Positions 5,434 through 63,881 of a DNA stretch of 64,000 bases are shown here, one piece after another (position 1 is the first letter of the stretch; each line of letters opens with the position of its first letter). The stretch is from Pomacea canaliculata. Its lineage: Eukaryota. Location of the stretch: contig NC_037593.1 of the NCBI RefSeq assembly GCF_003073045.1, positions 29,329,367-29,393,366 on the forward strand, given 5' to 3'. Below the pieces are notes generated by a model. The model searched no databases. It was given only the letters and a program-made list of their open reading frames with translations, and was not told where the DNA came from. Position numbers and translations under genes: made by a program.

Positions 5434-7195
5434 GCTGGCACGTCTGCACGTGCTGCTGCACCAGACGAGTTTCATGTTAGTTCAACAGTTTCCGTGGGCG
5501 CAGAGACTTACAGATTTCATTCACATGCACTGTCTCTTTCTTCATCTCATTCACACTCACTTGAGTGTCTGTCTATCACTATCTCTCACTCACACACTCA
5601 TTCTCTCTCTTTTTTTTTTTTTGTCTGAAATGCTCGTGTAAAGGAACATTGTAACATGCATCTACAGTCTCTGAAGAAAATAAGTTAAATCAAGATATTT
5701 ATTTGAACTAGCCACTACATAATGACAGGTGAGATTCAAGGTGATGAAGACAGATACAAACAGACAGCAAGAATAAACTTTAGAAACAAAGAGAGTCGAG
5801 AGTCTTTGACCGGATAAGACAATATACACATCGCCGCATGTATCACACTCATTCAAAGCTTCCCTGTACTAAAATACTAAACTATCTCAACAGTCATTCA
5901 CTTTAATATACTTTGATGGGTTCCTCGAAAAAATATGCTTAGTTTTAGAATTAAGGCGAATAAGGAAGCAAAGGTGAATGTAAGGCTTACAAACCACACG
6001 CAAGCGAGCGGATACCAGTTGTGGTGTAATGCAACCACTTCACTATGGCGGACGCAGACAGAAGCAGACGTCAACCAAAGCCAATGGTGGAATAATCTTT
6101 CCTACGATGATTTCTGAAAAAGCTGCAAAGTCGTGTCGCGCGGTGCTGGTGGTCGTTAGACAGTCTGTTAGGCGGCAAATGGAAATGTGTAACAAACTGC
6201 CCGCCGCCCTCGACTACAGGCCGAGCCGCTGAGCTGCTTTTCCGCCTGTGTCAAGACTGTGTAGCGTGTTTCTGTCACGTGATTCTATGAATAGCGCACA
6301 CTCACGTCATGTGACTCGTTCTGACATCACGGCTTTTATCCTGAACTGAATGTCGTCTGCTTTTGTTTGGCGATGAAATGACAGATGTGTGGTGCACGAT
6401 GGGATGTGCTAAGAGGCTCGCAGCATGCTAGATCATCATAGGAGAGGCCGCCATCGATCCGCTGATCGCAGACTGTAGAGGTTGACCTTGATGACCTCGA
6501 TCCGTTACCGCTAGAGCTCATGTCGTCTGCTGCTGGGCTTCTTTGTATCTCGTGGCCATTTGTGGGTCTGTAAACTTAATTGTTGTATGTATGATGAATA
6601 TGTTTATATGCGATTCTGTCGGCAATGACAGGTCGTCTGTGTTCGCGATGTGTGTGTGTCGGCAATGAAAGGTCGTATGTGTTCCTGATGTTCGTGTATG
6701 TCACTGTATTTGTAGCGTGCGTGTGTCTGTGTATGTGTATGTGATGTTGTCTAAGATATGCGTTCCTGTATGTGTGACTGTGTCTGCGATATGCATAATT
6801 GTGGTGTTTGCGTGCATGTGCGTGAGTGTGTATGACGTTAGGGTTTCTTGTGTTTAATATTTAAAGCAAAAAGCAGCTTTATAAATAACAAAGCATAATA
6901 TAAACCAGAGCTATTTTTATTACATGTTGTTCATGCCTTTTTTTTCCGAAACCGCTCTACCTGTAGTCCCGTGGCATATTATTCCACATAATATAGTGCC
7001 TCGGCCTTATCGGAAAATTTTATGAGGGTTGAAATGTTATCTATAAATCTTCAGATTACTAGTCACTCTTGACATCTATTGTTCACACCAGTAATATTGT
7101 AGCCAGCTATTAGTCACCGCCATCTGGAATACAGTAGCCACTGATCGCCATTTTAACACTCGAAATATTGCAGTGATGAGTCTGGATTTAGTTCT

Positions 7196-7305
7196 TTATG
7201 AGTACTGGAGGATGTAAGGAAGGCCTTCCATCTGCTTCTCTATGAATGGGTCAACTCTTTCACTCATAGCTACTGTAAAGTAGTTTTTCCAGTCGCCAAT
7301 CTCTC
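7196..7305 (-). CDS. SULT-3 coding exon 5
   Basis: 'ttttcag|GAGAGATTGGCGACTGG'. '(G)[35 protein letters not shown]'. TAA stop at 7196-7198. Exon sum 993 nt = 331 codons. Confidence 0.85.
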
Positions 7306-7768
7306 CTGAAAATAAAAGAAGGAAAGACTGTATTACAGGCGATAGTTGTTAGGGGGACAGTTTCGTAGAGCATGTCTCAGGATCATTACTTCCAAACACG
7401 CAAACACACAAACACACTGAAGTAACACTAGAGGCAGACAAGCTCTTTTTCCAACCTTTTCTTCAGTGTCTGGTAATTTTGTGCATGTATGATGTTAAAA
7501 TTTTCACTCTTTTTCTAACTTTAAATAGTTCCGAAATGGCTCAGATTATCACCGACCATGTTTAATGATTTCTAATCAAGTGATAAGACTGTCAACGGTC
7601 GAAATTTTTTTCTCTCATTTCTCTTCTCTCTGTGTGTTTACGAGCGAGCACTTAGTCATTGACAAATTGTGTGTTTAATTGATGTGCTTCAAACGATTTT
7701 AAACATGTGACTCAAAGCAAAAACAAAACAAAAATAGAAATCCTTTCTACAATATCGCGCCCTCTGAC

Positions 7769-7982
7769 CTTTTCTGTAAGATCTTGAGTGTCTAGGTTTT
7801 CTTTGTTCGTCGCCATTGACTTCTCTGTTGGGATGATGATGAGGAGGATGGTCGCGGGTTTTGAACTCTGCATTCTTCTTCAGGTTCTCAAAGTTGCATG
7901 CCTCAGCAATGTCTTCACAAATCGCATCGGAAATGTCGATCTCCAGGAATTTTGCCAACTTCTTTACATTTTGTGCGGGGTT
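7769..7982 (-). CDS. SULT-3 coding exon 4 (contains His/Pro-rich variable linker)
   Basis: 'ctcag|AACCCCGCACAAAATG'. 'NPAQNVKKLAKFLEIDISDAICEDIAEACNFENLKKNAEFKTRDHPPHHHPNREVNGDEQRKPRHSRSYRK(G)'. GTCAGA donor. 214 nt. Verified by hand translation. Confidence 0.85.
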
Positions 7983-9423: not shown

Positions 9424-10989
9424 GTTGTTAGCTTCTCTGAAAGCAAGATTCTGCTGTCGTGTCCGTAATCATGGAAGTAAAATAACAAAATAAAGTCAAA
9501 TAAAAGTTGAATATACAGAAAATATTTCTCATTTTAACTAGCCAAACACCTCGTGATCCACTTTTTACATCGGTACACATGCAGTAAACGATATGGTGAA
9601 CTGTCGATAAACTACTAAACTTTTTATTACGAGGTTCATGTTTGCTGCACTCTTACACAGCAACTGTATCTGTCATGTCAGATTATACAAACAACATTAC
9701 TATTTCCTCTTAGAATGTTTAACCCCTGACCTCTCATCTATAATGTTTCTGCTTTATGAGTTAAATGACAACATCCACAACTGAATGAATGTACACATGC
9801 GAAAAACACATTTTATCAAAGCTTTACGGTCATACCTGACTGACTACGGATAAAGAAGAAAAGGAAGTCCTCGAACACTTGGTCTTCAAGACTCCAGCGT
9901 CTGACTGTATATGCTCTGTGCTGTCTTCTGGTTAAAACTGTTTTCTGTATGATGGTACAGGTCTAGTCCTTGCCCACGGCAAACGTTTGTCACCGTTAAC
10001 TAACCGACACACTCTTTAAATAGCGGGTCGTACTCAATGCTGACCTCAAGGAGATAATGATCTCTAATCAGGTTCTTACATCTCGTTATATCTCTAACTC
10101 TGTGAGATGATTATTTCTGCCTCAGCACTCTTGGCTGGATAATGAGGCTCGCGACAAGATTGCCGCCATTTTGAACTAATTATAAAGTGATCCTGAGTTA
10201 TTTTGTTTTGGAGTATTCTAAATATAAAGTTATTTTTTCATTCGAGAATTTGTCATAAGCAAGAAAAAGAGTTGTGGGTTTTCTTGTGCTGAAAAGATCA
10301 CCTTAACCCTCGTCTCTACTAATCCTAGGGTAAACAAACCCTCTGTCTTATTGAAGACATGTTCTACATGTATTTGGATTGGAGCACCCAGCGTATTTGC
10401 TCACGTGTTGTCAACAAGAACAGTTTCAGAAGTTAAAATTATGTTTATCTTCCTACTAGATTAAATTTGCTTTTACGTATATCAAGGTGAAGGCTCTGAT
10501 TTGTGATAGAAATTTTTTTTTAATTCAGTAAGCACAAAGCATTGCCGTGAGAATATCACCCGATGTGATCTCAGGGTGGGACACATAAAAGCTGGCGGTT
10601 ATAAAGCGGGTCTTTCACACGACGGGTAGGAATTTATGGGTGGGATAGTCGACTGGCTTACTGGAGGAACATGATTTTCTCCAGACAGAAAGTACACACT
10701 AAACGCTTAGCCTCAGAAAATAGTTTAGCATGTCTACAAGCGATGATGTAAAGATATCTTTATTTGCTCTACTTAATGTTGCATGAATTACTCTAAGGTC
10801 ATGAACCGTTAGATGTAAGAGATTACTAATCAGCAAACAGCCCTCGGACAATTATGTTGAAAGATGTCGCTGCGTGTACTGTTATCTTCCGGGTAGACTT
10901 ACAGATAGCTTCTCGGTCAATTCTCGGTTGTAAGACCTGGATCGTCAAGGTTCAAGCGAATCGTGCCACATTTCAACCCATGGCGGTCC

Positions 10990-40829: not shown

Positions 40830-41340
40830 TGCCGGCCATGATGTTTTGTTTATTTACACAATCAGCTCCCTCTGCACCCAGATGTGTATTTCTAAGCGTT
40901 CAAAAACTGTCAGCCCTTTGACCTTTCAGACACAATTTAAGACACTGTAATGTATGATTATCCAACTACTGTCATATCAGAACTCTCATGTAATCAGAAA
41001 TATAATTCACACATATAATTATCATATATATCACACATATAATTATCCCTGTATAAAAGTCGTTCACTTTACAGAACCTACACAGGTGTGCGGCAATGGT
41101 TGGTGTGATCGAAAACAAACGTCGTCTTCTTTGATTTTTCAATAAAACTTTATTTATTTAGCAACGGTTTACTGAATAATGTGCTCGTGTTTGTGTAAAA
41201 AAAAATTTTACAGATTAATGTTACACCTTTACATCAATACAAATTAATATCAAAATATATATTACATCAACTAATAAGGAAGAAAAATATACAGATATAT
41301 ATATATTCAAGTGTCGATTCCCAAGTAGAGTCTAGTATCT

Positions 41341-44300
41341 CACTCACTCACTCACTCACTCACTCACTCACTCACTCACTCACTCACTCACTCACTCACT
41401 CACTCACTCACTCACTCACTCACTCACTCACTCACTCACTCACTCACTCACTCACTCACTCACTCACTCACTCACTCACTCACTCACTCACTCACTCACT
41501 CACTCACTCACTCACTCACTCACTCACTCACTCACTCACTCACTCACTCACTCACTCACTCACTCACTCACTCACTCACTCACTCACTCACTCACTCACT
41601 CACTCACTCACTCACTCACTCACTCACTCACTCACTCACTCACTCACTCACTCACTCACTCACTCACTCACTCACTCACTCACTCACTCACTCACTCACT
41701 CACTCACTCACTCACTCACTCACTCACTCACTCACTCACTCACTCACTCACTCACTCACTCACTCACTCACTCACTCACTCACTCACTCACTCACTCACT
41801 CACTCACTCACTCACTCACTCACTCACTCACTCACTCACTCACTCACTCACTCACTCACTCACTCACTCACTCACTCACTCACTCACTCACTCACTCACT
41901 CACTCACTCACTCACTCACTCACTCACTCACTCACTCACTCACTCACTCACTCACTCACTCACTCACTCACTCACTCACTCACTCACTCACTCACTCACT
42001 CACTCACTCACTCACTCACTCACTCACTCACTCACTCACTCACTCACTCACTCACTCACTCACTCACTCACTCACTCACTCACTCACTCACTCACTCACT
42101 CACTCACTCACTCACTCACTCACTCACTCACTCACTCACTCACTCACTCACTCACTCACTCACTCACTCACTCACTCACTCACTCACTCACTCACTCACT
42201 CACTCACTCACTCACTCACTCACTCACTCACTCACTCACTCACTCACTCACTCACTCACTCACTCACTCACTCACTCACTCACTCACTCACTCACTCACT
42301 CACTCACTCACTCACTCACTCACTCACTCACTCACTCACTCACTCACTCACTCACTCACTCACTCACTCACTCACTCACTCACTCACTCACTCACTCACT
42401 CACTCACTCACTCACTCACTCACTCACTCACTCACTCACTCACTCACTCACTCACTCACTCACTCACTCACTCACTCACTCACTCACTCACTCACTCACT
42501 CACTCACTCACTCACTCACTCACTCACTCACTCACTCACTCACTCACTCACTCACTCACTCACTCACTCACTCACTCACTCACTCACTCACTCACTCACT
42601 CACTCACTCACTCACTCACTCACTCACTCACTCACTCACTCACTCACTCACTCACTCACTCACTCACTCACTCACTCACTCACTCACTCACTCACTCACT
42701 CACTCACTCACTCACTCACTCACTCACTCACTCACTCACTCACTCACTCACTCACTCACTCACTCACTCACTCACTCACTCACTCACTCACTCACTCACT
42801 CACTCACTCACTCACTCACTCACTCACTCACTCACTCACTCACTCACTCACTCACTCACTCACTCACTCACTCACTCACTCACTCACTCACTCACTCACT
42901 CACTCACTCACTCACTCACTCACTCACTCACTCACTCACTCACTCACTCACTCACTCACTCACTCACTCACTCACTCACTCACTCACTCACTCACTCACT
43001 CACTCACTCACTCACTCACTCACTCACTCACTCACTCACTCACTCACTCACTCACTCACTCACTCACTCACTCACTCACTCACTCACTCACTCACTCACT
43101 CACTCACTCACTCACTCACTCACTCACTCACTCACTCACTCACTCACTCACTCACTCACTCACTCACTCACTCACTCACTCACTCACTCACTCACTCACT
43201 CACTCACTCACTCACTCACTCACTCACTCACTCACTCACTCACTCACTCACTCACTCACTCACTCACTCACTCACTCACTCACTCACTCACTCACTCACT
43301 CACTCACTCACTCACTCACTCACTCACTCACTCACTCACTCACTCACTCACTCACTCACTCACTCACTCACTCACTCACTCACTCACTCACTCACTCACT
43401 CACTCACTCACTCACTCACTCACTCACTCACTCACTCACTCACTCACTCACTCACTCACTCACTCACTCACTCACTCACTCACTCACTCACTCACTCACT
43501 CACTCACTCACTCACTCACTCACTCACTCACTCACTCACTCACTCACTCACTCACTCACTCACTCACTCACTCACTCACTCACTCACTCACTCACTCACT
43601 CACTCACTCACTCACTCACTCACTCACTCACTCACTCACTCACTCACTCACTCACTCACTCACTCACTCACTCACTCACTCACTCACTCACTCACTCACT
43701 CACTCACTCACTCACTCACTCACTCACTCACTCACTCACTCACTCACTCACTCACTCACTCACTCACTCACTCACTCACTCACTCACTCACTCACTCACT
43801 CACTCACTCACTCACTCACTCACTCACTCACTCACTCACTCACTCACTCACTCACTCACTCACTCACTCACTCACTCACTCACTCACTCACTCACTCACT
43901 CACTCACTCACTCACTCACTCACTCACTCACTCACTCACTCACTCACTCACTCACTCACTCACTCACTCACTCACTCACTCACTCACTCACTCACTCACT
44001 CACTCACTCACTCACTCACTCACTCACTCACTCACTCACTCACTCACTCACTCACTCACTCACTCACTCACTCACTCACTCACTCACTCACTCACTCACT
44101 CACTCACTCACTCACTCACTCACTCACTCACTCACTCACTCACTCACTCACTCACTCACTCACTCACTCACTCACTCACTCACTCACTCACTCACTCACT
44201 CACTCACTCACTCACTCACTCACTCACTCACTCACTCACTCACTCACTCACTCACTCACTCACTCACTCACTCACTCACTCACTCACTCACTCACTCACT

Positions 44301-47300
44301 CACTCACTCACTCACTCACTCACTCACTCACTCACTCACTCACTCACTCACTCACTCACTCACTCACTCACTCACTCACTCACTCACTCACTCACTCACT
44401 CACTCACTCACTCACTCACTCACTCACTCACTCACTCACTCACTCACTCACTCACTCACTCACTCACTCACTCACTCACTCACTCACTCACTCACTCACT
44501 CACTCACTCACTCACTCACTCACTCACTCACTCACTCACTCACTCACTCACTCACTCACTCACTCACTCACTCACTCACTCACTCACTCACTCACTCACT
44601 CACTCACTCACTCACTCACTCACTCACTCACTCACTCACTCACTCACTCACTCACTCACTCACTCACTCACTCACTCACTCACTCACTCACTCACTCACT
44701 CACTCACTCACTCACTCACTCACTCACTCACTCACTCACTCACTCACTCACTCACTCACTCACTCACTCACTCACTCACTCACTCACTCACTCACTCACT
44801 CACTCACTCACTCACTCACTCACTCACTCACTCACTCACTCACTCACTCACTCACTCACTCACTCACTCACTCACTCACTCACTCACTCACTCACTCACT
44901 CACTCACTCACTCACTCACTCACTCACTCACTCACTCACTCACTCACTCACTCACTCACTCACTCACTCACTCACTCACTCACTCACTCACTCACTCACT
45001 CACTCACTCACTCACTCACTCACTCACTCACTCACTCACTCACTCACTCACTCACTCACTCACTCACTCACTCACTCACTCACTCACTCACTCACTCACT
45101 CACTCACTCACTCACTCACTCACTCACTCACTCACTCACTCACTCACTCACTCACTCACTCACTCACTCACTCACTCACTCACTCACTCACTCACTCACT
45201 CACTCACTCACTCACTCACTCACTCACTCACTCACTCACTCACTCACTCACTCACTCACTCACTCACTCACTCACTCACTCACTCACTCACTCACTCACT
45301 CACTCACTCACTCACTCACTCACTCACTCACTCACTCACTCACTCACTCACTCACTCACTCACTCACTCACTCACTCACTCACTCACTCACTCACTCACT
45401 CACTCACTCACTCACTCACTCACTCACTCACTCACTCACTCACTCACTCACTCACTCACTCACTCACTCACTCACTCACTCACTCACTCACTCACTCACT
45501 CACTCACTCACTCACTCACTCACTCACTCACTCACTCACTCACTCACTCACTCACTCACTCACTCACTCACTCACTCACTCACTCACTCACTCACTCACT
45601 CACTCACTCACTCACTCACTCACTCACTCACTCACTCACTCACTCACTCACTCACTCACTCACTCACTCACTCACTCACTCACTCACTCACTCACTCACT
45701 CACTCACTCACTCACTCACTCACTCACTCACTCACTCACTCACTCACTCACTCACTCACTCACTCACTCACTCACTCACTCACTCACTCACTCACTCACT
45801 CACTCACTCACTCACTCACTCACTCACTCACTCACTCACTCACTCACTCACTCACTCACTCACTCACTCACTCACTCACTCACTCACTCACTCACTCACT
45901 CACTCACTCACTCACTCACTCACTCACTCACTCACTCACTCACTCACTCACTCACTCACTCACTCACTCACTCACTCACTCACTCACTCACTCACTCACT
46001 CACTCACTCACTCACTCACTCACTCACTCACTCACTCACTCACTCACTCACTCACTCACTCACTCACTCACTCACTCACTCACTCACTCACTCACTCACT
46101 CACTCACTCACTCACTCACTCACTCACTCACTCACTCACTCACTCACTCACTCACTCACTCACTCACTCACTCACTCACTCACTCACTCACTCACTCACT
46201 CACTCACTCACTCACTCACTCACTCACTCACTCACTCACTCACTCACTCACTCACTCACTCACTCACTCACTCACTCACTCACTCACTCACTCACTCACT
46301 CACTCACTCACTCACTCACTCACTCACTCACTCACTCACTCACTCACTCACTCACTCACTCACTCACTCACTCACTCACTCACTCACTCACTCACTCACT
46401 CACTCACTCACTCACTCACTCACTCACTCACTCACTCACTCACTCACTCACTCACTCACTCACTCACTCACTCACTCACTCACTCACTCACTCACTCACT
46501 CACTCACTCACTCACTCACTCACTCACTCACTCACTCACTCACTCACTCACTCACTCACTCACTCACTCACTCACTCACTCACTCACTCACTCACTCACT
46601 CACTCACTCACTCACTCACTCACTCACTCACTCACTCACTCACTCACTCACTCACTCACTCACTCACTCACTCACTCACTCACTCACTCACTCACTCACT
46701 CACTCACTCACTCACTCACTCACTCACTCACTCACTCACTCACTCACTCACTCACTCACTCACTCACTCACTCACTCACTCACTCACTCACTCACTCACT
46801 CACTCACTCACTCACTCACTCACTCACTCACTCACTCACTCACTCACTCACTCACTCACTCACTCACTCACTCACTCACTCACTCACTCACTCACTCACT
46901 CACTCACTCACTCACTCACTCACTCACTCACTCACTCACTCACTCACTCACTCACTCACTCACTCACTCACTCACTCACTCACTCACTCACTCACTCACT
47001 CACTCACTCACTCACTCACTCACTCACTCACTCACTCACTCACTCACTCACTCACTCACTCACTCACTCACTCACTCACTCACTCACTCACTCACTCACT
47101 CACTCACTCACTCACTCACTCACTCACTCACTCACTCACTCACTCACTCACTCACTCACTCACTCACTCACTCACTCACTCACTCACTCACTCACTCACT
47201 CACTCACTCACTCACTCACTCACTCACTCACTCACTCACTCACTCACTCACTCACTCACTCACTCACTCACTCACTCACTCACTCACTCACTCACTCACT

Positions 47301-49342
47301 CACTCACTCACTCACTCACTCACTCACTCACTCACTCACTCACTCACTCACTCACTCACTCACTCACTCACTCACTCACTCACTCACTCACTCACTCACT
47401 CACTCACTCACTCACTCACTCACTCACTCACTCACTCACTCACTCACTCACTCACTCACTCACTCACTCACTCACTCACTCACTCACTCACTCACTCACT
47501 CACTCACTCACTCACTCACTCACTCACTCACTCACTCACTCACTCACTCACTCACTCACTCACTCACTCACTCACTCACTCACTCACTCACTCACTCACT
47601 CACTCACTCACTCACTCACTCACTCACTCACTCACTCACTCACTCACTCACTCACTCACTCACTCACTCACTCACTCACTCACTCACTCACTCACTCACT
47701 CACTCACTCACTCACTCACTCACTCACTCACTCACTCACTCACTCACTCACTCACTCACTCACTCACTCACTCACTCACTCACTCACTCACTCACTCACT
47801 CACTCACTCACTCACTCACTCACTCACTCACTCACTCACTCACTCACTCACTCACTCACTCACTCACTCACTCACTCACTCACTCACTCACTCACTCACT
47901 CACTCACTCACTCACTCACTCACTCACTCACTCACTCACTCACTCACTCACTCACTCACTCACTCACTCACTCACTCACTCACTCACTCACTCACTCACT
48001 CACTCACTCACTCACTCACTCACTCACTCACTCACTCACTCACTCACTCACTCACTCACTCACTCACTCACTCACTCACTCACTCACTCACTCACTCACT
48101 CACTCACTCACTCACTCACTCACTCACTCACTCACTCACTCACTCACTCACTCACTCACTCACTCACTCACTCACTCACTCACTCACTCACTCACTCACT
48201 CACTCACTCACTCACTCACTCACTCACTCACTCACTCACTCACTCACTCACTCACTCACTCACTCACTCACTCACTCACTCACTCACTCACTCACTCACT
48301 CACTCACTCACTCACTCACTCACTCACTCACTCACTCACTCACTCACTCACTCACTCACTCACTCACTCACTCACTCACTCACTCACTCACTCACTCACT
48401 CACTCACTCACTCACTCACTCACTCACTCACTCACTCACTCACTCACTCACTCACTCACTCACTCACTCACTCACTCACTCACTCACTCACTCACTCACT
48501 CACTCACTCACTCACTCACTCACTCACTCACTCACTCACTCACTCACTCACTCACTCACTCACTCACTCACTCACTCACTCACTCACTCACTCACTCACT
48601 CACTCACTCACTCACTCACTCACTCACTCACTCACTCACTCACTCACTCACTCACTCACTCACTCACTCACTCACTCACTCACTCACTCACTCACTCACT
48701 CACTCACTCACTCACTCACTCACTCACTCACTCACTCACTCACTCACTCACTCACTCACTCACTCACTCACTCACTCACTCACTCACTCACTCACTCACT
48801 CACTCACTCACTCACTCACTCACTCACTCACTCACTCACTCACTCACTCACTCACTCACTCACTCACTCACTCACTCACTCACTCACTCACTCACTCACT
48901 CACTCACTCACTCACTCACTCACTCACTCACTCACTCACTCACTCACTCACTCACTCACTCACTCACTCACTCACTCACTCACTCACTCACTCACTCACT
49001 CACTCACTCACTCACTCACTCACTCACTCACTCACTCACTCACTCACTCACTCACTCACTCACTCACTCACTCACTCACTCACTCACTCACTCACTCACT
49101 CACTCACTCACTCACTCACTCACTCACTCACTCACTCACTCACTCACTCACTCACTCACTCACTCACTCACTCACTCACTCACTCACTCACTCACTCACT
49201 CACTCACTCACTCACTCACTCACTCACTCACTCACTCACTCACTCACTCACTCACTCACTCACTCACTCACTCACTCACTCACTCACTCACTCACTCACT
49301 CACTCACTCACTCACTCACTCACTCACTCACTCACTCACTCA
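41341..49342. repeat. Giant uninterrupted tetranucleotide microsatellite (CACT)n, ~8.0 kb, ~2000 units (AGTG on the opposite strand)
   Basis: Every 60-nt line from 41341 to 49320 reads cactcactca... with no variant base. The tract ends 'cactcactca|gacttttttt' at 49342 and begins after 'gtctagtatct' at 41340. Confidence 0.97.
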
Positions 49343-50300: not shown

Positions 50301-51293
50301 GTAGTTTACTGGCATGGACTCCTGTAGCCTACTGGCCGAAGTGGCTCATCATGTCTAGAGTACGCCCCGTGGAAAGCGGAATCAAAGCTTTCCCTCCTCC
50401 ACATTTACATCTGTAAGCTTTGTGTGTGTGTGTGGGTGCGTGCGTGCGTGGATGAGAGAGAGAGAGGGTGTGTGTGTTCTAGAGAGTGAGCGTTCTCTCT
50501 CTCTTTCAAGTCTCACTGGAGGGGTGCACGCATGTGTGTGTAAGAAAGAGCAAGATCACATTAAAAGAAATCCGTGATGACGCTCAATAAATAAATAACT
50601 AAATCATTATTCACCTTTCGATTTGTAACCGCATAAAATTCTAGAATGTGGAAAGGGATGGACTGCGGGTCAGCATTCATATGAAGACTGTTTTTCTACT
50701 CTCACCATCATGACAAGTGATCACTTGTTAGGATTTTCGAAACAAGTGAGATCACATCAGAGTTTGAAAAATATCAGTCTCATCAAAATAACCGACCTGA
50801 GGTCACTTGTAGGCGGCCATCTGGATGCACATCAAACACATGAACAGATGGCTGGCTTTATGCTTACAAACACTACCTGATGGAACATTACATGTGGAAA
50901 CACAGTGGCTAGTCAAGCAGCTAGTCCATCATGCCTTTGGCTTGAGTTTGTACTGAGCAACGCAAGCACTCGTAACCAAGCTAGCTATGTGCTAGCATAA
51001 TGCTTGGCATGGCCAGGATGAACAGACAAACAAACAAGCTAGCTATGTTCTAGCATAATGCTAGGCATGGCCAGGGTGAACAGACAAACAAACAAGCTAG
51101 CTATGTGCTAGCATAATGATTGGCATGGCCAGGGTGAACAGATAAACATGAATAAATGAGCGAAGTAGTTTACTGGCATGGACTCCTGTAGCCTACTGGC
51201 CGAAGTGGCTCATCATGTCTAGAGTACGTCCCGTGGAAAGCGGAATCAAAGCTTTCCCTCCGCCACATTTACATCTGTAAGCTTTAAATAGCT
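50301..51293. repeat. Two ~128-bp direct repeats (50301-50428 and 51166-51293) flanking a ~60-bp x3 tandem minisatellite (50940-51140) and (TG)n/(GA)n tracts
   Basis: 'agtagtttactggcatggactcctgtagcctactggccgaagtggctcatcatgtctagagtacg(c/t)cccgtggaaagcggaatcaaagctttccctcc(t/g)ccacatttacatctgtaagcttt' occurs twice. Between them, 'caagctagctatgtgctagcataatgcttggcatggccagggtgaacagacaaacaaa' repeats three times. Confidence 0.8.
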
Positions 51294-52350: not shown

Positions 52351-53040
52351 TGCGAGAGAGAAAGAAGGATAATCGTGAAGGAGTGAATAAAACTTACATT
52401 TGAGAAACACCTCCAAGAAAAGACAAACGTATAGTTCAGAATAAACGCAAAAATAAAAACGGTATCTTGAGAGAATGTCGATGCTAGATATCAGATATCA
52501 GATATAAATTATAGCAAATTGTATTGAAACAGATTTTCAATGGTGTGAAGAGACACGCTGGTCATTAGTGTCAAAGTGTCAAATGATACAGTAAATTATT
52601 TAACACCTACATACAGCAAGGTACACGACAGTAAACCCAGACATTATTGTGACTGTCTGTGGTAAAGTTTGTTTTAAATATACATTATTTTTTCATAAAA
52701 TAAGTAAACTATAAGCTAAACTACATCGTCCTCGTCATGTGTCATTTTAAAATTTGGACTGACATGTAGATGTTAAATTGTTACATATTTTTAAAAAGTT
52801 GATTTTGTCAGAGCTTTCTAGCATCAATGCTGTTAAATTACAATAGATAAGTTGATGTGTTTGGCAAAATATGTCGGACTTCTCTATTATATTTTATGTG
52901 AGATATGTTTGCCACATTCCACAGCTGGTCCATGCACAAAAAAACAAATTCCAAATTTCCGAACCCACAGTCCGAACACTTCCACTGTCACACACATCTT
53001 ATGTTCTTCCGACATTCAATTCCCCCTCCCCCCTAAAAAA

Positions 53041-53270
53041 AATCTCCAGTTGAAAATGACACCAAGTCTCCACTTGAATATAACACCAAGTTTCCACTTC
53101 TAGGTAACACAAATATGTCCACTTGAATATAACACCAAGTCTCCACTTGAATATAACACAAAGTTTCCACTTCTAGGTAACACAAATATGTCCACTTGAA
53201 TATAACACAAAGTTTCCACTTCTAGGTAACACAAATATGTCCACTTGAAAGTAACACAAAGTTTTCACTG
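53041..53270. repeat. Minisatellite, ~22-24 bp unit x ~9-10
   Basis: Alternating units 'ccacttgaatataacaccaagtct' / 'ccacttctaggtaacacaaatatgt' repeated in tandem. Confidence 0.8.
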
Positions 53271-60223: not shown

Positions 60224-61300
60224 CTGACCAACAGATATGGACACAGAGTGAGTTGTTGACTAACAAAGATGGACACGCCTAATTAATTCGACATACCGCA
60301 AAATGGGGTTCATATCTCCCACAATAGCCATCTGTCGCAGTCTTGGTCAATGTAACAGGTTAACAATAGTCCTTCCCTCCACAGCAAAAGTTTCTTTTAA
60401 TCACTGAAGATTTCCATGCATACAACCTCAGCTCCATCTCATTGAAGTGAGGGAGGGATCCAAGGGTTAAATTTGTTAATTTTAAAGAGTGGATCTTTTG
60501 TATAAAGAATTTTTTTTTTATTTTGAAGGAATTGGTGGCTGTCAACTATGTGAGGTTCAGTCCTTGCGAGCAGACGGCTGCCATGTCGATTTAAAGCTTG
60601 CCCGTTGTATTTGTGATTGATGCAGATATAGGAACTTTTAAACAAGATTCTAAAGCCAAAACCTTTCTTATCTGATAGTTGATAAAGGCTTTCTTGCACA
60701 CCCACGTGTGTGTGGTGGTGGTGGTGGTGGTAGGAGACAGGTACAGCCATTATGTCCTGCCCCACTTTGCCAGAGCTTTGAAGTACAAGCCGTCTGCTCC
60801 ATGTTCTACATTTTGACCTGTTCATGAAATGTTTTTATTACCCCACCTTCTGATCTTTTCTGGCGTGTTTCATCAGAAAGGCATTACCATTTGTGATTTT
60901 GCTCTCTCTCTCTCCCTCCTTCTCGTGTATGTGTGTATGAATATTTAGGCCCTCGTTATATTTTTAATCAAGAACAAGGGGTGTGCTTATCAAATGAGTT
61001 CGTGCAAACAAGTGTTTGCCAGCAAGCATTCGTGTAAAGGTGAGAAAAATGTGAGGCAATTGTTAGAACTACAGCGAGTAAATCTGCTGAACAGCAGTGG
61101 TCGTGGGTTACCAAATTAAACCTCAGCCTCTTTCTGATCATAGTCAGACGTCTCTCACCTTATTCTGATATCTGTTATTTCCCCCATCAACCTGAGTCCT
61201 ATCTCTCTCTCTCTCTGACCTCTTTCACATCACATCATACTTCACATCAATCTCATCCCTCTCACTACAGTCTGACCCCTCTCAGAGTCGGACATCTTAC

Positions 61301-61502
61301 CTGTTTTGGGGTAGGTACACAGCAGGATGTCATCGTGTCGAAGCTCCATGTTGCGCAGATCATCGATGTGTTTCTCCCACTCCTCTTTGTTAAATCGGAA
61401 ACTGGGCAGAGGAATACCTTCTACCAGCCAGTAAATTGGATCAAGCTTGCCATCTTTCTCGTTTTCCATCTTGAAAGAGCTGTTGTGTTCCTGGCTTGTC
61501 AT
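61301..61502 (-). CDS. SULT-11 cytosolic sulfotransferase (subfamily III), coding exon 1 of 5
   Basis: Probable ATG at ~61502 (minus) 'MTSQEHNSSFKMENEKDGKLDPIYWLVEGIPLPSFRFNKEEWEKHIDDLRNMELRHDDILLCTYPKT(G)'. GTAAGA donor. The ORF track extends upstream to ~61559 with a non-ATG start, so the start is uncertain by 1-2 nt and up to 57 nt. Confidence 0.65.
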
Positions 61503-61696
61503 TCCACCTGAAGCAACGGTCGGGACTGCACTGACAGCGACGAAATTATCTAGTGTCACGCTTATGTTTGTTTAACAATTTACCTCTGGGAGACCCTTTA
61601 AATATTTTCTTTCGTCTGCTATCGGCAGTGTCTGTCCTGTGACTGCTGAAGGCCGTGCGAGAGCATTTTTATAGGTGTCAAGTTATGGGAGGAGTG

Positions 61697-61706: not shown

Positions 61707-62618
61707 AGCATTTTTTTTCTCTTTTCTCCCTTCTTGCGCTGGCCGCTTGTTTGTTATTTATGCGACAAACCTTGACTGGTTTAAGCCAGTGGATTTAGCA
61801 ATAGCGAAAAACATGGGGGAATAAAATCATAAACCTGCTTTGTAGTAAGCGGTCTCATTTCTCTTTCAAACACCTTCTTGACCCTTTTCATTACTATTAT
61901 TGAAATAAATGTTCTTCAGTACTAAAAAAAAAAAAAAAACGGACGCCGGCTCATGAACCCTCCAGTATAGGGAGACACAATGTGAATCATAGACAAATTT
62001 CTCAGAGTTGTTGCTAAGTAGTTTGCGCCTCTAAAATCTCATTACCATGAGATGAACAGGGTTATTATGTCCTTCACTTTTAACTAGATATGAAGGAAAA
62101 AGGCAAGAGACTGAGGCTATGATCGAGAACTGCCACACTCTGAGCAAGAAGTAATTTGAAAAAAAAATTGAAAAAAACTAGACAAGACCCACATATCTTC
62201 AAGCTGGTCAGAATATATTATCCCGTTCAATTCATATTCAATGTTGACCAAAAATTCAACATACACTCCATCTTATAAAGTATTTGTGTGTATGTGTGTG
62301 TGTGCGCTAGTTAACTCCATACCGTTTGTTCCATCCTAATGAAATTTTACAGAGGTTCCTCTTTTGTCTATGGAAAGGTCTCAGGCCGTTTTAAATCTTA
62401 ATTTTACTTCTTACAAATCTTAAATTGTGGAGTTTCACACAAAGGCCACTTATTCACTATGTTCATATTTCACAGCCATGTAGATTGTAGATTAATTGTG
62501 GTAAAGGTGGATCATACAGATCAATGTAGGTATAGTGTAGGTATGTTTATGTGTAACTAATTACACTTGTTAACGAAGCATACATAAATATCAAAAGGTA
62601 TATCCTATCAATCGTTAT

Positions 62619-63881
62619 ACAGTGGAACCTCGGTTAGCGAACGCCTCGGATAGCGAATATTTCGGTTAACGAACAAAAATTTCGTTGAAAGTTTGTCTCG
62701 GATAGCGAACAAAATTTCGGATAACGAACAGCCACGTGAACCACACGTGACCGACCAGCATGTCATCATTCGCGCTCGAGACACAGTTACGATCGGTCGT
62801 TCCTTATCTGTGTGCATCCTTCTTATTTAGTGATAAGATATTTAAATAAGATAATCCTCAATCATGGCTCCAAAGAAAAGTCTGTAGAGAAGTCTTTCCC
62901 TAACAGTGCGATAGGCAATATGAGCCTAAACATGTTCAGTGTACTGCTGTGTATATGTAGTACACATACTTCTATGTATGTGTATACACCTTGTGCTTTA
63001 CGGTATATACTGCTGTACTACTGTATGAAGTTCATATACTATTTTGTATATGCATGTATCTGGGATAGCTGGATTTTGAGCAAGAGTTTGGACAGCCAAC
63101 AACAAGAAAAATAAGAAAGTAATACAGATAGAACCCTGCTTACGAAGTCTATCTCAGTAAACTTTATGGGACCCTTGAATTTTCGGGAGAAGGAACAATC
63201 GAGAAGTGACCTCCTCTACATGATGATGATGAGGATGAGGATAAGTTTCGTGCACCCAGCAACACATTTTGACCGCCTGCTGCCTTCCAAGTGATGATAA
63301 GCATGGAGGGTTTCTTTGTCTGCAAGATGGCCGAGACCAGCAACATCTGTCTTTATGGAGCAGAGTTTATGTTCTGTCAAATTCTACTTGAGTGATTTTA
63401 TTTTCGTTTTAAAAGGAGTCACAAAGCTTTCGTGCTGCATAGAAAACTGTGTGGCATTTAATGATGTTAATATAGAGGAGTGTGTGGAATTTAATGATTT
63501 CAGTATAGTTGTTGGCATTGCAGGTTCAATTTATGTCTCTTGCACGTTGAGAAATATTTCATAGCCGGAGCGCTGTTTAATGTTTGAATGACTGTAGGGG
63601 TCTTTCATACAGATTTCACATTAAAGTATATCATAGCTACGCAAATAACATTAACAGTGAAAATAATCCACCCTTTCCATTCTCAAGATACACACCCACA
63701 AACATCAGCATGCACAGGTCAAGGCCACTCGTACAGACGTCAGAGTTGTACATAGCGATTAACCAATTAAATATATTTCTTTTATTTCTTATGGGAAAAA
63801 CTGTTTCGGATAACGAACATTTCGGATAACGAACAACTTTCCAGAACGGATTATGTTCGTTAACCGAGGTTTCACTGTATT
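62619..63881. mobile_element. Non-autonomous DNA-transposon-like element (~1.26 kb) with terminal inverted repeats and subterminal 'TTCGGATAACGAAC' direct repeats
   Basis: 5' end 'tacagtggaacctcggttagcgaacgcctcggatagcgaa..ttcggataacgaacagcc' (62619-62735). 3' end '..tttcggataacgaacatttcggataacgaacaac..cgttaaccgaggtttcactgtat' (63793-63881). Termini are reverse complements (tacagtgGaacctcggttaGcgaac / tacagtgAaacctcggttaAcgaac). No transposase-like ORF inside. Confidence 0.6.

Follow-up and report, generated by a model that had tools for sequence, protein, structure and literature searches.

A probable non-autonomous Tigger element with asymmetric ends upstream of a sulfotransferase gene in Pomacea canaliculata

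Introduction

Tigger elements are DNA transposons of the pogo superfamily, within the IS630-Tc1-mariner group, and they have been described from the genus Pomacea. In Pomacea canaliculata and P. maculata they measure 2340 and 2360 bp, respectively, contain open reading frames (ORFs) of 581 and 567 amino acids, and have the terminal inverted repeat (TIR) CAGTGGAACCTCGGTTAACGAAC and TA on both flanks (PMC9219625, Table S1). Here, we describe a 1258-bp element with the same type of ends, found in a 64,000-nucleotide stretch of P. canaliculata DNA (NCBI RefSeq assembly GCF_003073045.1, contig NC_037593.1, positions 29,329,367 to 29,393,366 of the forward strand), which we call the window and whose own numbering, starting at 1, is used throughout. 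We consider it very probable that this locus is a single Tigger copy that is non-autonomous, having been internally deleted or replaced, and that its ends are of the 'Tig1C' or DD36D type.

Tig1C elements have also been listed from other animals. The scorpion element Mema-Tig1C (Mesobuthus) is 2430 bp long, has TA/TA flanks and encodes a 564-amino-acid DD36D transposase with CENP-B_N/HTH_Tnp_Tc5 and DDE_1 domains, and the planarian element Scme-Tig1C (Schmidtea) encodes a DD36D transposase of 598 amino acids (Gao et al. 2020, PMC7386202, Table S1). The same paper divides pogo TIRs into classes, of which 'type 1' comprises those of at most 40 bp that start with CAGT or CAGG.

How a pogo-like transposase sits on ends of this kind has been shown by experiment for Lemi1 and the plant element Emigrant of Arabidopsis (PMC1636448, Loot et al. 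2006). On Emigrant TIR2, Lemi1 leaves a continuous 56-bp footprint that covers the TIR and two contiguous repeats of its 3' half in the same orientation. On TIR1, the footprint consists of the 23-bp TIR and, at a distance of 22 bp, two reversed repeats that together measure 29 bp. Binding of Lemi1 to Emigrant was found to be cooperative.

Element boundaries and target site

Direct reading of the sequence, together with a repeat finder, places the element proper at 62620-63877. Its left, 5'-type TIR, CAGTGGAACCTCGGTTAGCGAAC, occupies 62620-62642 on the plus strand and is 23 bp long; its right, 3'-type TIR, CAGTGAAACCTCGGTTAACGAAC in minus-strand reading, occupies 63855-63877. They are complementary at 21 of 23 positions, the mismatches falling at TIR positions 6 and 18, which bears out the two mismatches reported in an earlier note that a model had made on this DNA. 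About 0.01 inverted repeats of 23 nt, with at most two mismatches and no more than 2 kb apart, are expected per 64-kb window. The tips start with CAGTG, and a length of 23 bp fits the short pogo 'type 1' class. The consensus of both TIRs, CAGTGGAACCTCGGTTAACGAAC, is identical to the TIR of the autonomous Pomacea Tigger elements, and each of the two TIRs departs from it by one mismatch. The TIR also matches that of the Scleropages element Scfo-Tig1C at 16 of 16 positions and that of Mema-Tig1C at 20 of 23 (elements of PMC7386202, Table S1).

A TA dinucleotide, read directly from the sequence, lies on either flank (62618-62619 and 63878-63879) and constitutes a candidate target-site duplication. 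Because TA abuts each TIR, we take 62620 and 63877 as the limits of the element proper; the span of 62619-63881 given in the earlier note had located the right element, with limits that were off by 1-4 nt. An assignment to PIF/Harbinger, with its 3-bp TWA duplication, was considered and dismissed, since there is no such match in the flanks outside the TA.

Subterminal repeats and layout of the ends

The ends carry repeats of the 13-mer TCGG(A/T)TA(A/G)CGAA(C), which occurs eight times in the window, all eight copies lying inside the element. With up to two mismatches allowed, the 14-mer TTCGGATAACGAAC has six matches against 0.19 expected, a count that none of 100 shuffles reached.

At the left end there are five copies, all on the plus strand and starting at 62630, 62646, 62662, 62698 and 62717, that is, three, a gap and two. 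The copy at 62630 (copy 1) is the inner half of the left TIR. Copies 2 and 3 (TCGGATAGCGAAT and TCGGTTAACGAAC, at 62646-62674 on the plus strand) adjoin the TIR in the same orientation, and the three together span 55 bp (62620-62674). Copies 4 and 5 (TCGGATAGCGAAC and TCGGATAACGAAC; 62698-62729, plus strand) follow after a 23-bp gap, and this '3 + gap + 2' pattern is kept in the left-end alignment described below. Directly inside the left subterminal repeats are two CACGTG hexamers, which resemble E-boxes, at 62733-62738 and 62744-62749, 5 bp apart.

The right end is built differently. Its TIR contains copy 8 as its inner half (63855-63867, minus strand), and the two further copies, 6 and 7, which start at 63806 and 63822 on the plus strand (both TCGGATAACGAAC, 29 bp together, 63806-63834), are inverted relative to it, so the two ends are not mirror images. 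The same arrangement is seen in the metagenome loci L066, L013, L043 and L126, and the inversion of the right-end repeats relative to the TIR is a trait of the family, which has no mirror-image arrangement. The picture of three to four direct copies at each end, which the earlier note had drawn, must therefore be replaced by one of five copies on the left and two reversed copies plus one in the TIR on the right.

Between the reversed pair and the right TIR lies a 20-bp spacer, AACTTTCCAGAACGGATTAT (63835-63854), which is conserved in relatives. Its minus-strand reading, with the last C of the TIR counted in, is CATAATCCGTTCTGGAAAGTT; it is kept as (C/G)ATAATTCGTTCCGGAA in the short elements L013 and L043 from JGI samples and in frog Tig1C, and its counterpart is TTAATTC(G/A)TTCC in fish Tig1C and L126 and CATAGTTTGTTCTGGAA in the cheetah element. 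On the inner side of the reversed pair, the minus strand carries a 3'-end signature, TTTTTCCCATAAGAAATAAAAG (63779-63800), which can be aligned both with ...TTTCCCCATAAGAAATAA... in the Scfo-, Acju- and Napa-Tig1C elements and with L126.

Similarity to published Tigger elements

The resemblance to Tig1C elements extends well beyond the TIRs. Over the left 110 nt, identity to the 5' ends of Mema-Tig1C, Scme-Tig1C and the metagenome loci L124 and L126 amounts to 68-74% (z 10-17); for the right 100 nt, comparison with the 3' ends of Scfo-, Tafl-, Acju- and Napa-Tig1C and of L126 gives 66-75% (z 7-18). Controls across the two types, in which the left end was compared with right-type ends and the reverse, gave z scores of only ~5.5. 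Multiple alignments of the left ends and of the right ends have a mean column identity of 72-73% over ~120 columns.

Mema-Tig1C and Scme-Tig1C open with this type of TIR and then carry direct repeats in the 3 + gap + 2 order seen here, and the left layout of a TIR with adjoining copies also occurs in L073, L066 and L093. For Scleropages, Takifugu, cheetah and frog, the Tig1C entries run the other way round and show the right-end pattern, including ...TTTCCCCATAAGAAATAA.... We presume that the mammalian Tig1C ends resemble the Repbase Tigger4/MER8 type. Searching the full-text literature for the TIR string, and for Emigrant and Tigger1 TIR strings, returned primer noise only.

Our element and the Tig1C elements of the two Pomacea species, Mesobuthus, Schmidtea and Scleropages, together with L126, thus share TA flanks, a 23-bp TIR that is identical (as a consensus) or nearly so, a 5' TIR followed by four further direct copies of its inner half, and a 3' TIR accompanied by the conserved spacer, a reversed pair of copies and the signature CCCATAAGAAAT. 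They differ in size and content: the Tig1C elements measure 2.2-2.6 kb and their intact copies encode a transposase of ~440-600 amino acids, whereas the element described here measures 1258 bp, encodes no recognizable transposase and has an interior unrelated to those tested. The listed copy of Scfo-Tig1C likewise has no annotated ORF or domains.

A transposase-bearing relative in termite DNA

Independently of the published tables, the ends can be linked to a transposase through a metagenome locus. A protein search with conserved blocks of the Pomacea transposase led to Tigger fragments, two of which (P0134 and P0140) are encoded on contigs of the same termite-gut samples that hold the short elements described in the next section. 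The locus L126, in host DNA of an Embiratermes neotenicus gut metagenome, contains at 5499-7864 a complete, TA-flanked Tigger element of 2366 bp with the same asymmetric ends. Its left end has the TIR and then direct repeats; its right end has the TIR, a spacer (CTTAATTCGTTCC...), two reversed, degenerate repeats and TTTTCTCCATAGGAATTAATG. Pfam identifies HTH_Tnp_Tc5 (E 4e-12) and DDE_1 (E 4e-22) in its ORFs, and 36 residues separate the second and third catalytic D (DD36D), compared with 32 in Tigger1. As the same locus combines these ends with HTH_Tnp_Tc5 and DDE_1 ORFs, the end architecture is tied to a pogo-type DD36D Tigger transposase. Two other loci, L124 and L125, are listed beside L126 as Tigger (DD36D) loci.

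The TIR of L126 is CAGTCAAACCTCGGTTCACGAA, compared with CAGTGATACCTCGGTTAACGAA in the miniature inverted-repeat transposable elements (MITEs) that abound in the same samples. Because the TIRs differ, L126 is not the direct parent of those MITEs.

Related short elements in metagenomes

Scanning metagenome contigs with the pattern CAGTGNNACCTCGGTTANCGAA yielded at least 120 loci, which, apart from a few chance bacterial matches, lie on AT-rich, eukaryote-like contigs. The JGI samples among them are termite-gut metagenomes that include host DNA; IMG 3300009784, for example, represents the P4 gut segment of Embiratermes neotenicus (PMC7800795). Among the matches listed, 110 of 121 related ends have TA directly in front of them, the base at -3 being variable, and at least 34 are complete short elements of 182-777 bp, 29 of these 34 having TA on both flanks. 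Both end types recur in these MITEs: L066 and L073 show the 3 + gap + 2 layout on the left, and L066, L013 and L043 show the reversed pair, spacer and TIR on the right. Over 75 bp, the right end of our element is up to 85% identical to those of MITEs in the termite samples.

The short MITEs (L066 at 692-889, L052 at 5952-6133, L021 and ~30 elements of 230-780 bp from termite samples) therefore have the TIR family, the end architecture and the TA flanks in common with our element. They differ from it in being several-fold shorter and clearly multi-copy, in residing in other hosts (termite and others) and in having interiors unrelated to its own. We searched beside the TIR for a transposase in the at least 120 metagenome loci and found none, the contigs either breaking at the repeat or holding MITEs only.

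The earlier note had named the absence of other copies and of any target-site duplication signature as grounds for abandoning a transposon interpretation. The locus has passed this check in part: TA stands on either flank, and related copies bounded by TA number more than 100 in other eukaryotic DNA.

Some of these loci have features of their own. Many contigs of one assembly, ERZ500997 (e.g. L008, L019, L048, L070 and L099), stop exactly inside the TIR and subterminal repeats. That contigs repeatedly end at the repeat points to a family of very high copy number, in a host that is AT-rich and whose proteins are poly-N/Q/T-rich. L026 contains, at 909-1596, four TIR starts in the same orientation at an exact spacing of 222 bp, each preceded by TGTACTTATATA; here, a MITE unit has been multiplied as a tandem array and not by transposition.

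The exact TIR pattern has no match in viral contigs and two in prokaryotic genome contigs (L121 and L122), both from bacterial metagenome-assembled genomes. L121, the one inspected, was rejected as a chance match: it has no TA beside it, and its sequence is the bacterial one also found in the chance metagenome matches L100 and L108. The element is not of prokaryotic origin.

The interior of the element

Between the two sets of end repeats, the interior (62730-63778) has no relation to Tigger transposase genes or to the rest of the window that Pfam, tblastn, blastn or self-blast could detect. Pfam gave no match for any of the interior open frames, and the two frames that the earlier note had described as free of transposase features, which end at 63111 and 63561, are indeed so by this measure. 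A tblastn search of the element and the window with Tigger1, the ORFs of L124 and L126 and ~50 Tigger proteins returned nothing significant. The Tigger1 query was validated by 93% identity to human TIGD1, and a protein search with it returned only Tig1A-type proteins. When the element was compared with full-length L126 by blastn, matches were confined to ~60 nt at its very start and ~96 nt at its very end. Self-blast revealed no second copy of the element in the window, nor do its TIR, motif or interior recur elsewhere in these 64 kb. Rfam matched no family anywhere in the window.

A possible relic of a transposase start lies near the left end. The sequence ATGGCTCCAAAGAAAAGT (62864-62881) encodes MAPKKS, with a stop one codon later (ATG GCT CCA AAG AAA AGT CTG TAG, MAPKKSL*, at 62864-62887 on the plus strand), and the Tigger proteins P0166 and P0151 begin with MAPKKS and MAPKKA, respectively. 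The ATG is 245 nt from the tip of the element, and the ORF of the full-length relative L124 starts ~290 nt from its tip. The match is suggestive of a retained transposase start and would be compatible with an internal-deletion derivative; at six residues, it is not statistically significant.

Two further observations concern repeats and relics rather than the ends. Within the interior, 63439-63504 is a direct tandem duplication of 33 nt at 79% identity. Far from the element, at 9596-9721 of the window, three Tigger DDE_1 queries gave weak tblastn matches (E 0.016-0.95) in a frame full of stops, which may be a very decayed pogo-type relic or noise.

Comparison with Emigrant and inverted repeat/direct repeat elements

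The end layout has close counterparts in Emigrant. Where the Lemi1 footprints measure 56 bp on one Emigrant end and comprise a TIR and a separate reversed pair on the other, our element has 55 bp of TIR and contiguous repeats at one end and, at the other, a 23-bp TIR that 20 bp separate from a reversed pair of 29 bp. Emigrant, too, is non-autonomous with pogo-type ends, and the C positions of its TIR (1, 9, 10 and 12) fit CAGTnnnnCCTC, as do those of the element. It differs in belonging to the plant Lemi family, in being a short, high-copy MITE and in having transposase binding shown by experiment; the element measures 1.26 kb, belongs with Tigger and not with plant Lemi, and its binding by a transposase is presumed.

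Tc1 elements with Sleeping Beauty-type inverted repeat/direct repeat ends also have transposase-binding repeats within each end (candidate sites in our element), a TA duplication and CAGT tips. Their ends, however, are mirror images with two sites each, and their DD34E transposase has a paired-like domain, in contrast to the asymmetric ends, the 5 + 3 sites and the match to pogo/Tigger elements seen here.

The asymmetric ends, in which the 5' side has five sites and the 3' side one site plus a reversed pair, are common to planarian, scorpion, termite, snail-type and vertebrate Tig1C elements. Because this layout is conserved across Tig1C and mirrors that of plant Lemi1/Emigrant, it suggests that the geometry of the synaptic complex is an old property of pogo-type transposases.

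Genomic surroundings

The window is eukaryotic and contains at least 11 tandem paralogues of cytosolic sulfotransferase genes, spread over 600-61600 on both strands (Pfam Sulfotransfer_1, E 8e-19). They have a conserved exon 2 that encodes ...GTHWLWEV...RNPKD..., and the best database relatives of the sulfotransferase exon, from metagenome contigs, are 53-63% identical. The last gene of the array is read from the minus strand and has its exon 1 at 61245-61571. The element is intergenic and lies upstream of this gene, ~1.05 kb from its first coding exon.

The window also holds several simple repeats. At 41339-49342 there is a perfect (CTCA) x 2001 microsatellite of 8004 bp, with 100% matches and 0 indels, and the GC skew is -1 across 42-48 kb. 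As such a length has not a single variant, the array resembles an artefact of assembly or consensus more than a biological feature. Satellite-like tandem repeats occur at 50977-51148 (58 bp x 3, 93% identity) and 53038-53269 (a 24/73-bp unit repeated 3-9.5 times).

Alternative explanations

Tc1 elements have TA duplications and TIRs that start with CAGTG, so tips and TA by themselves do not separate Tc1 from pogo. With no transposase in the copy to decide the matter, one could thus propose a non-autonomous element of the Tc1 family proper (DD34E), but this is highly improbable. The 23-bp TIR and ~100 nt of each end match elements with HTH_Tnp_Tc5 and DDE_1 domains of the DD36D type, an exclusion by positive match in which no Tc1 library was compared, and the asymmetric repeat layout is the one described for the pogo-like Lemi1/Emigrant system. 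It is likewise very unlikely that two unrelated solo ends, or ends of different decayed copies, happen to face each other across ordinary genomic DNA. The interior has no homology to Tigger sequences, as this would predict, but the two ends are of complementary types, 5' on the left and 3' on the right, they are in the correct relative orientation with a TA flank each, their TIRs differ at only 2 of 23 positions, and the MAPKKS start codon stands at about the expected distance from the 5' tip. As no other copy of the motif or TIR exists in the 64 kb, a chance juxtaposition is unlikely.

An inverted repeat or structural palindrome that arose by chance, with no transposon behind it, would explain why a single copy is visible in the window and nothing further; it is effectively refuted by the rarity of such inverted repeats, by the shuffles, none of which matched the motif count, and by the more than 100 homologous, TA-flanked ends elsewhere. 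A regulatory module exapted near the sulfotransferase gene is a different kind of proposal, since it could hold alongside a Tigger origin. The position upstream of exon 1 and the two CACGTG boxes speak for it; the other 10 paralogues of the array have no such element nearby, and short boxes such as CACGTG are common by chance, and we give the idea very little credence.

A number of points do weigh against a non-autonomous Tigger copy as we have described it. The 64-kb window contains no autonomous partner, and the ~1.05-kb interior, with no similarity to any Tigger sequence tested, could be unrelated filler. The description as an internal-deletion derivative draws on the ends and the six-codon MAPKKS match only, and the Tig1C clade assignment is likewise a tentative one, read from non-coding ends. 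We infer both the TA duplication and the copy number in the host, and the palindromic TA can formally be read as an extension of the TIR.

Discussion

The repeat sites and their layout, the TA flanks, the homology of the ends to transposase-bearing elements and the lack of a detectable transposase are direct observations. The CENP-B_N/HTH_Tnp_Tc5 and DDE_1 coding region by which Tig1C is recognized is missing from the element, and since neither Pfam nor tblastn matched a transposase, we class it as a non-autonomous derivative and not as an autonomous member. MITEs are usually below ~800 bp, so at 1258 bp 'non-autonomous Tigger element' is the fitting label. The earlier note's reading of a non-autonomous DNA transposon is thus supported and now has a family name, that of Tigger in the pogo superfamily; its likeness to MITEs holds for the lack of coding capacity and fails on size.

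The element cannot move by itself and, if it moves at all, does so in trans. A Tigger transposase encoded elsewhere would recognize the 13-mer TCGG(A/T)TA(A/G)CGAAC through its CENP-B-like / HTH_Tnp_Tc5 domain, at the inner half of each TIR, at the four further sites of the 5' end (completing the 3 + gap + 2) and at the two reversed sites of the 3' end. Cooperative binding would build an asymmetric synaptic (paired-end) complex, the DDD catalytic domain would cut at the CAGTG tips, and the element would re-insert at a TA that is duplicated in the process. Binding, cooperativity and mobilization are proposed here by analogy with Lemi1/Emigrant and pogo, and a partner in this genome is putative. 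The two TIR mismatches and the variation among motif copies suggest an old, probably inactive and immobile copy.

Across this animal, termite host DNA and a minimum of two further, unrelated hosts, the non-coding ends (~100 nt) share 75-85% identity. A passage in PMC9219625 reports horizontal transfer of Tigger elements as frequent, and the similarity of the ends across phyla fits that report. One may go further and suppose that the copy stems from a fairly recent cross-phylum horizontal transfer of the Tig1C lineage, and that, as all eight binding sites can still be made out, it might remain mobilizable and polymorphic beside a rapidly expanding sulfotransferase array; we regard this as speculative and rather unlikely.

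The element is a further non-autonomous member of the thoroughly described TcMar-Tigger / pogo family and, as such, an ordinary finding. Its main value lies in correct repeat annotation: the locus should be masked as a relic of a Tigger/pogo-type DNA transposon, and not treated as a gene or a regulatory novelty.

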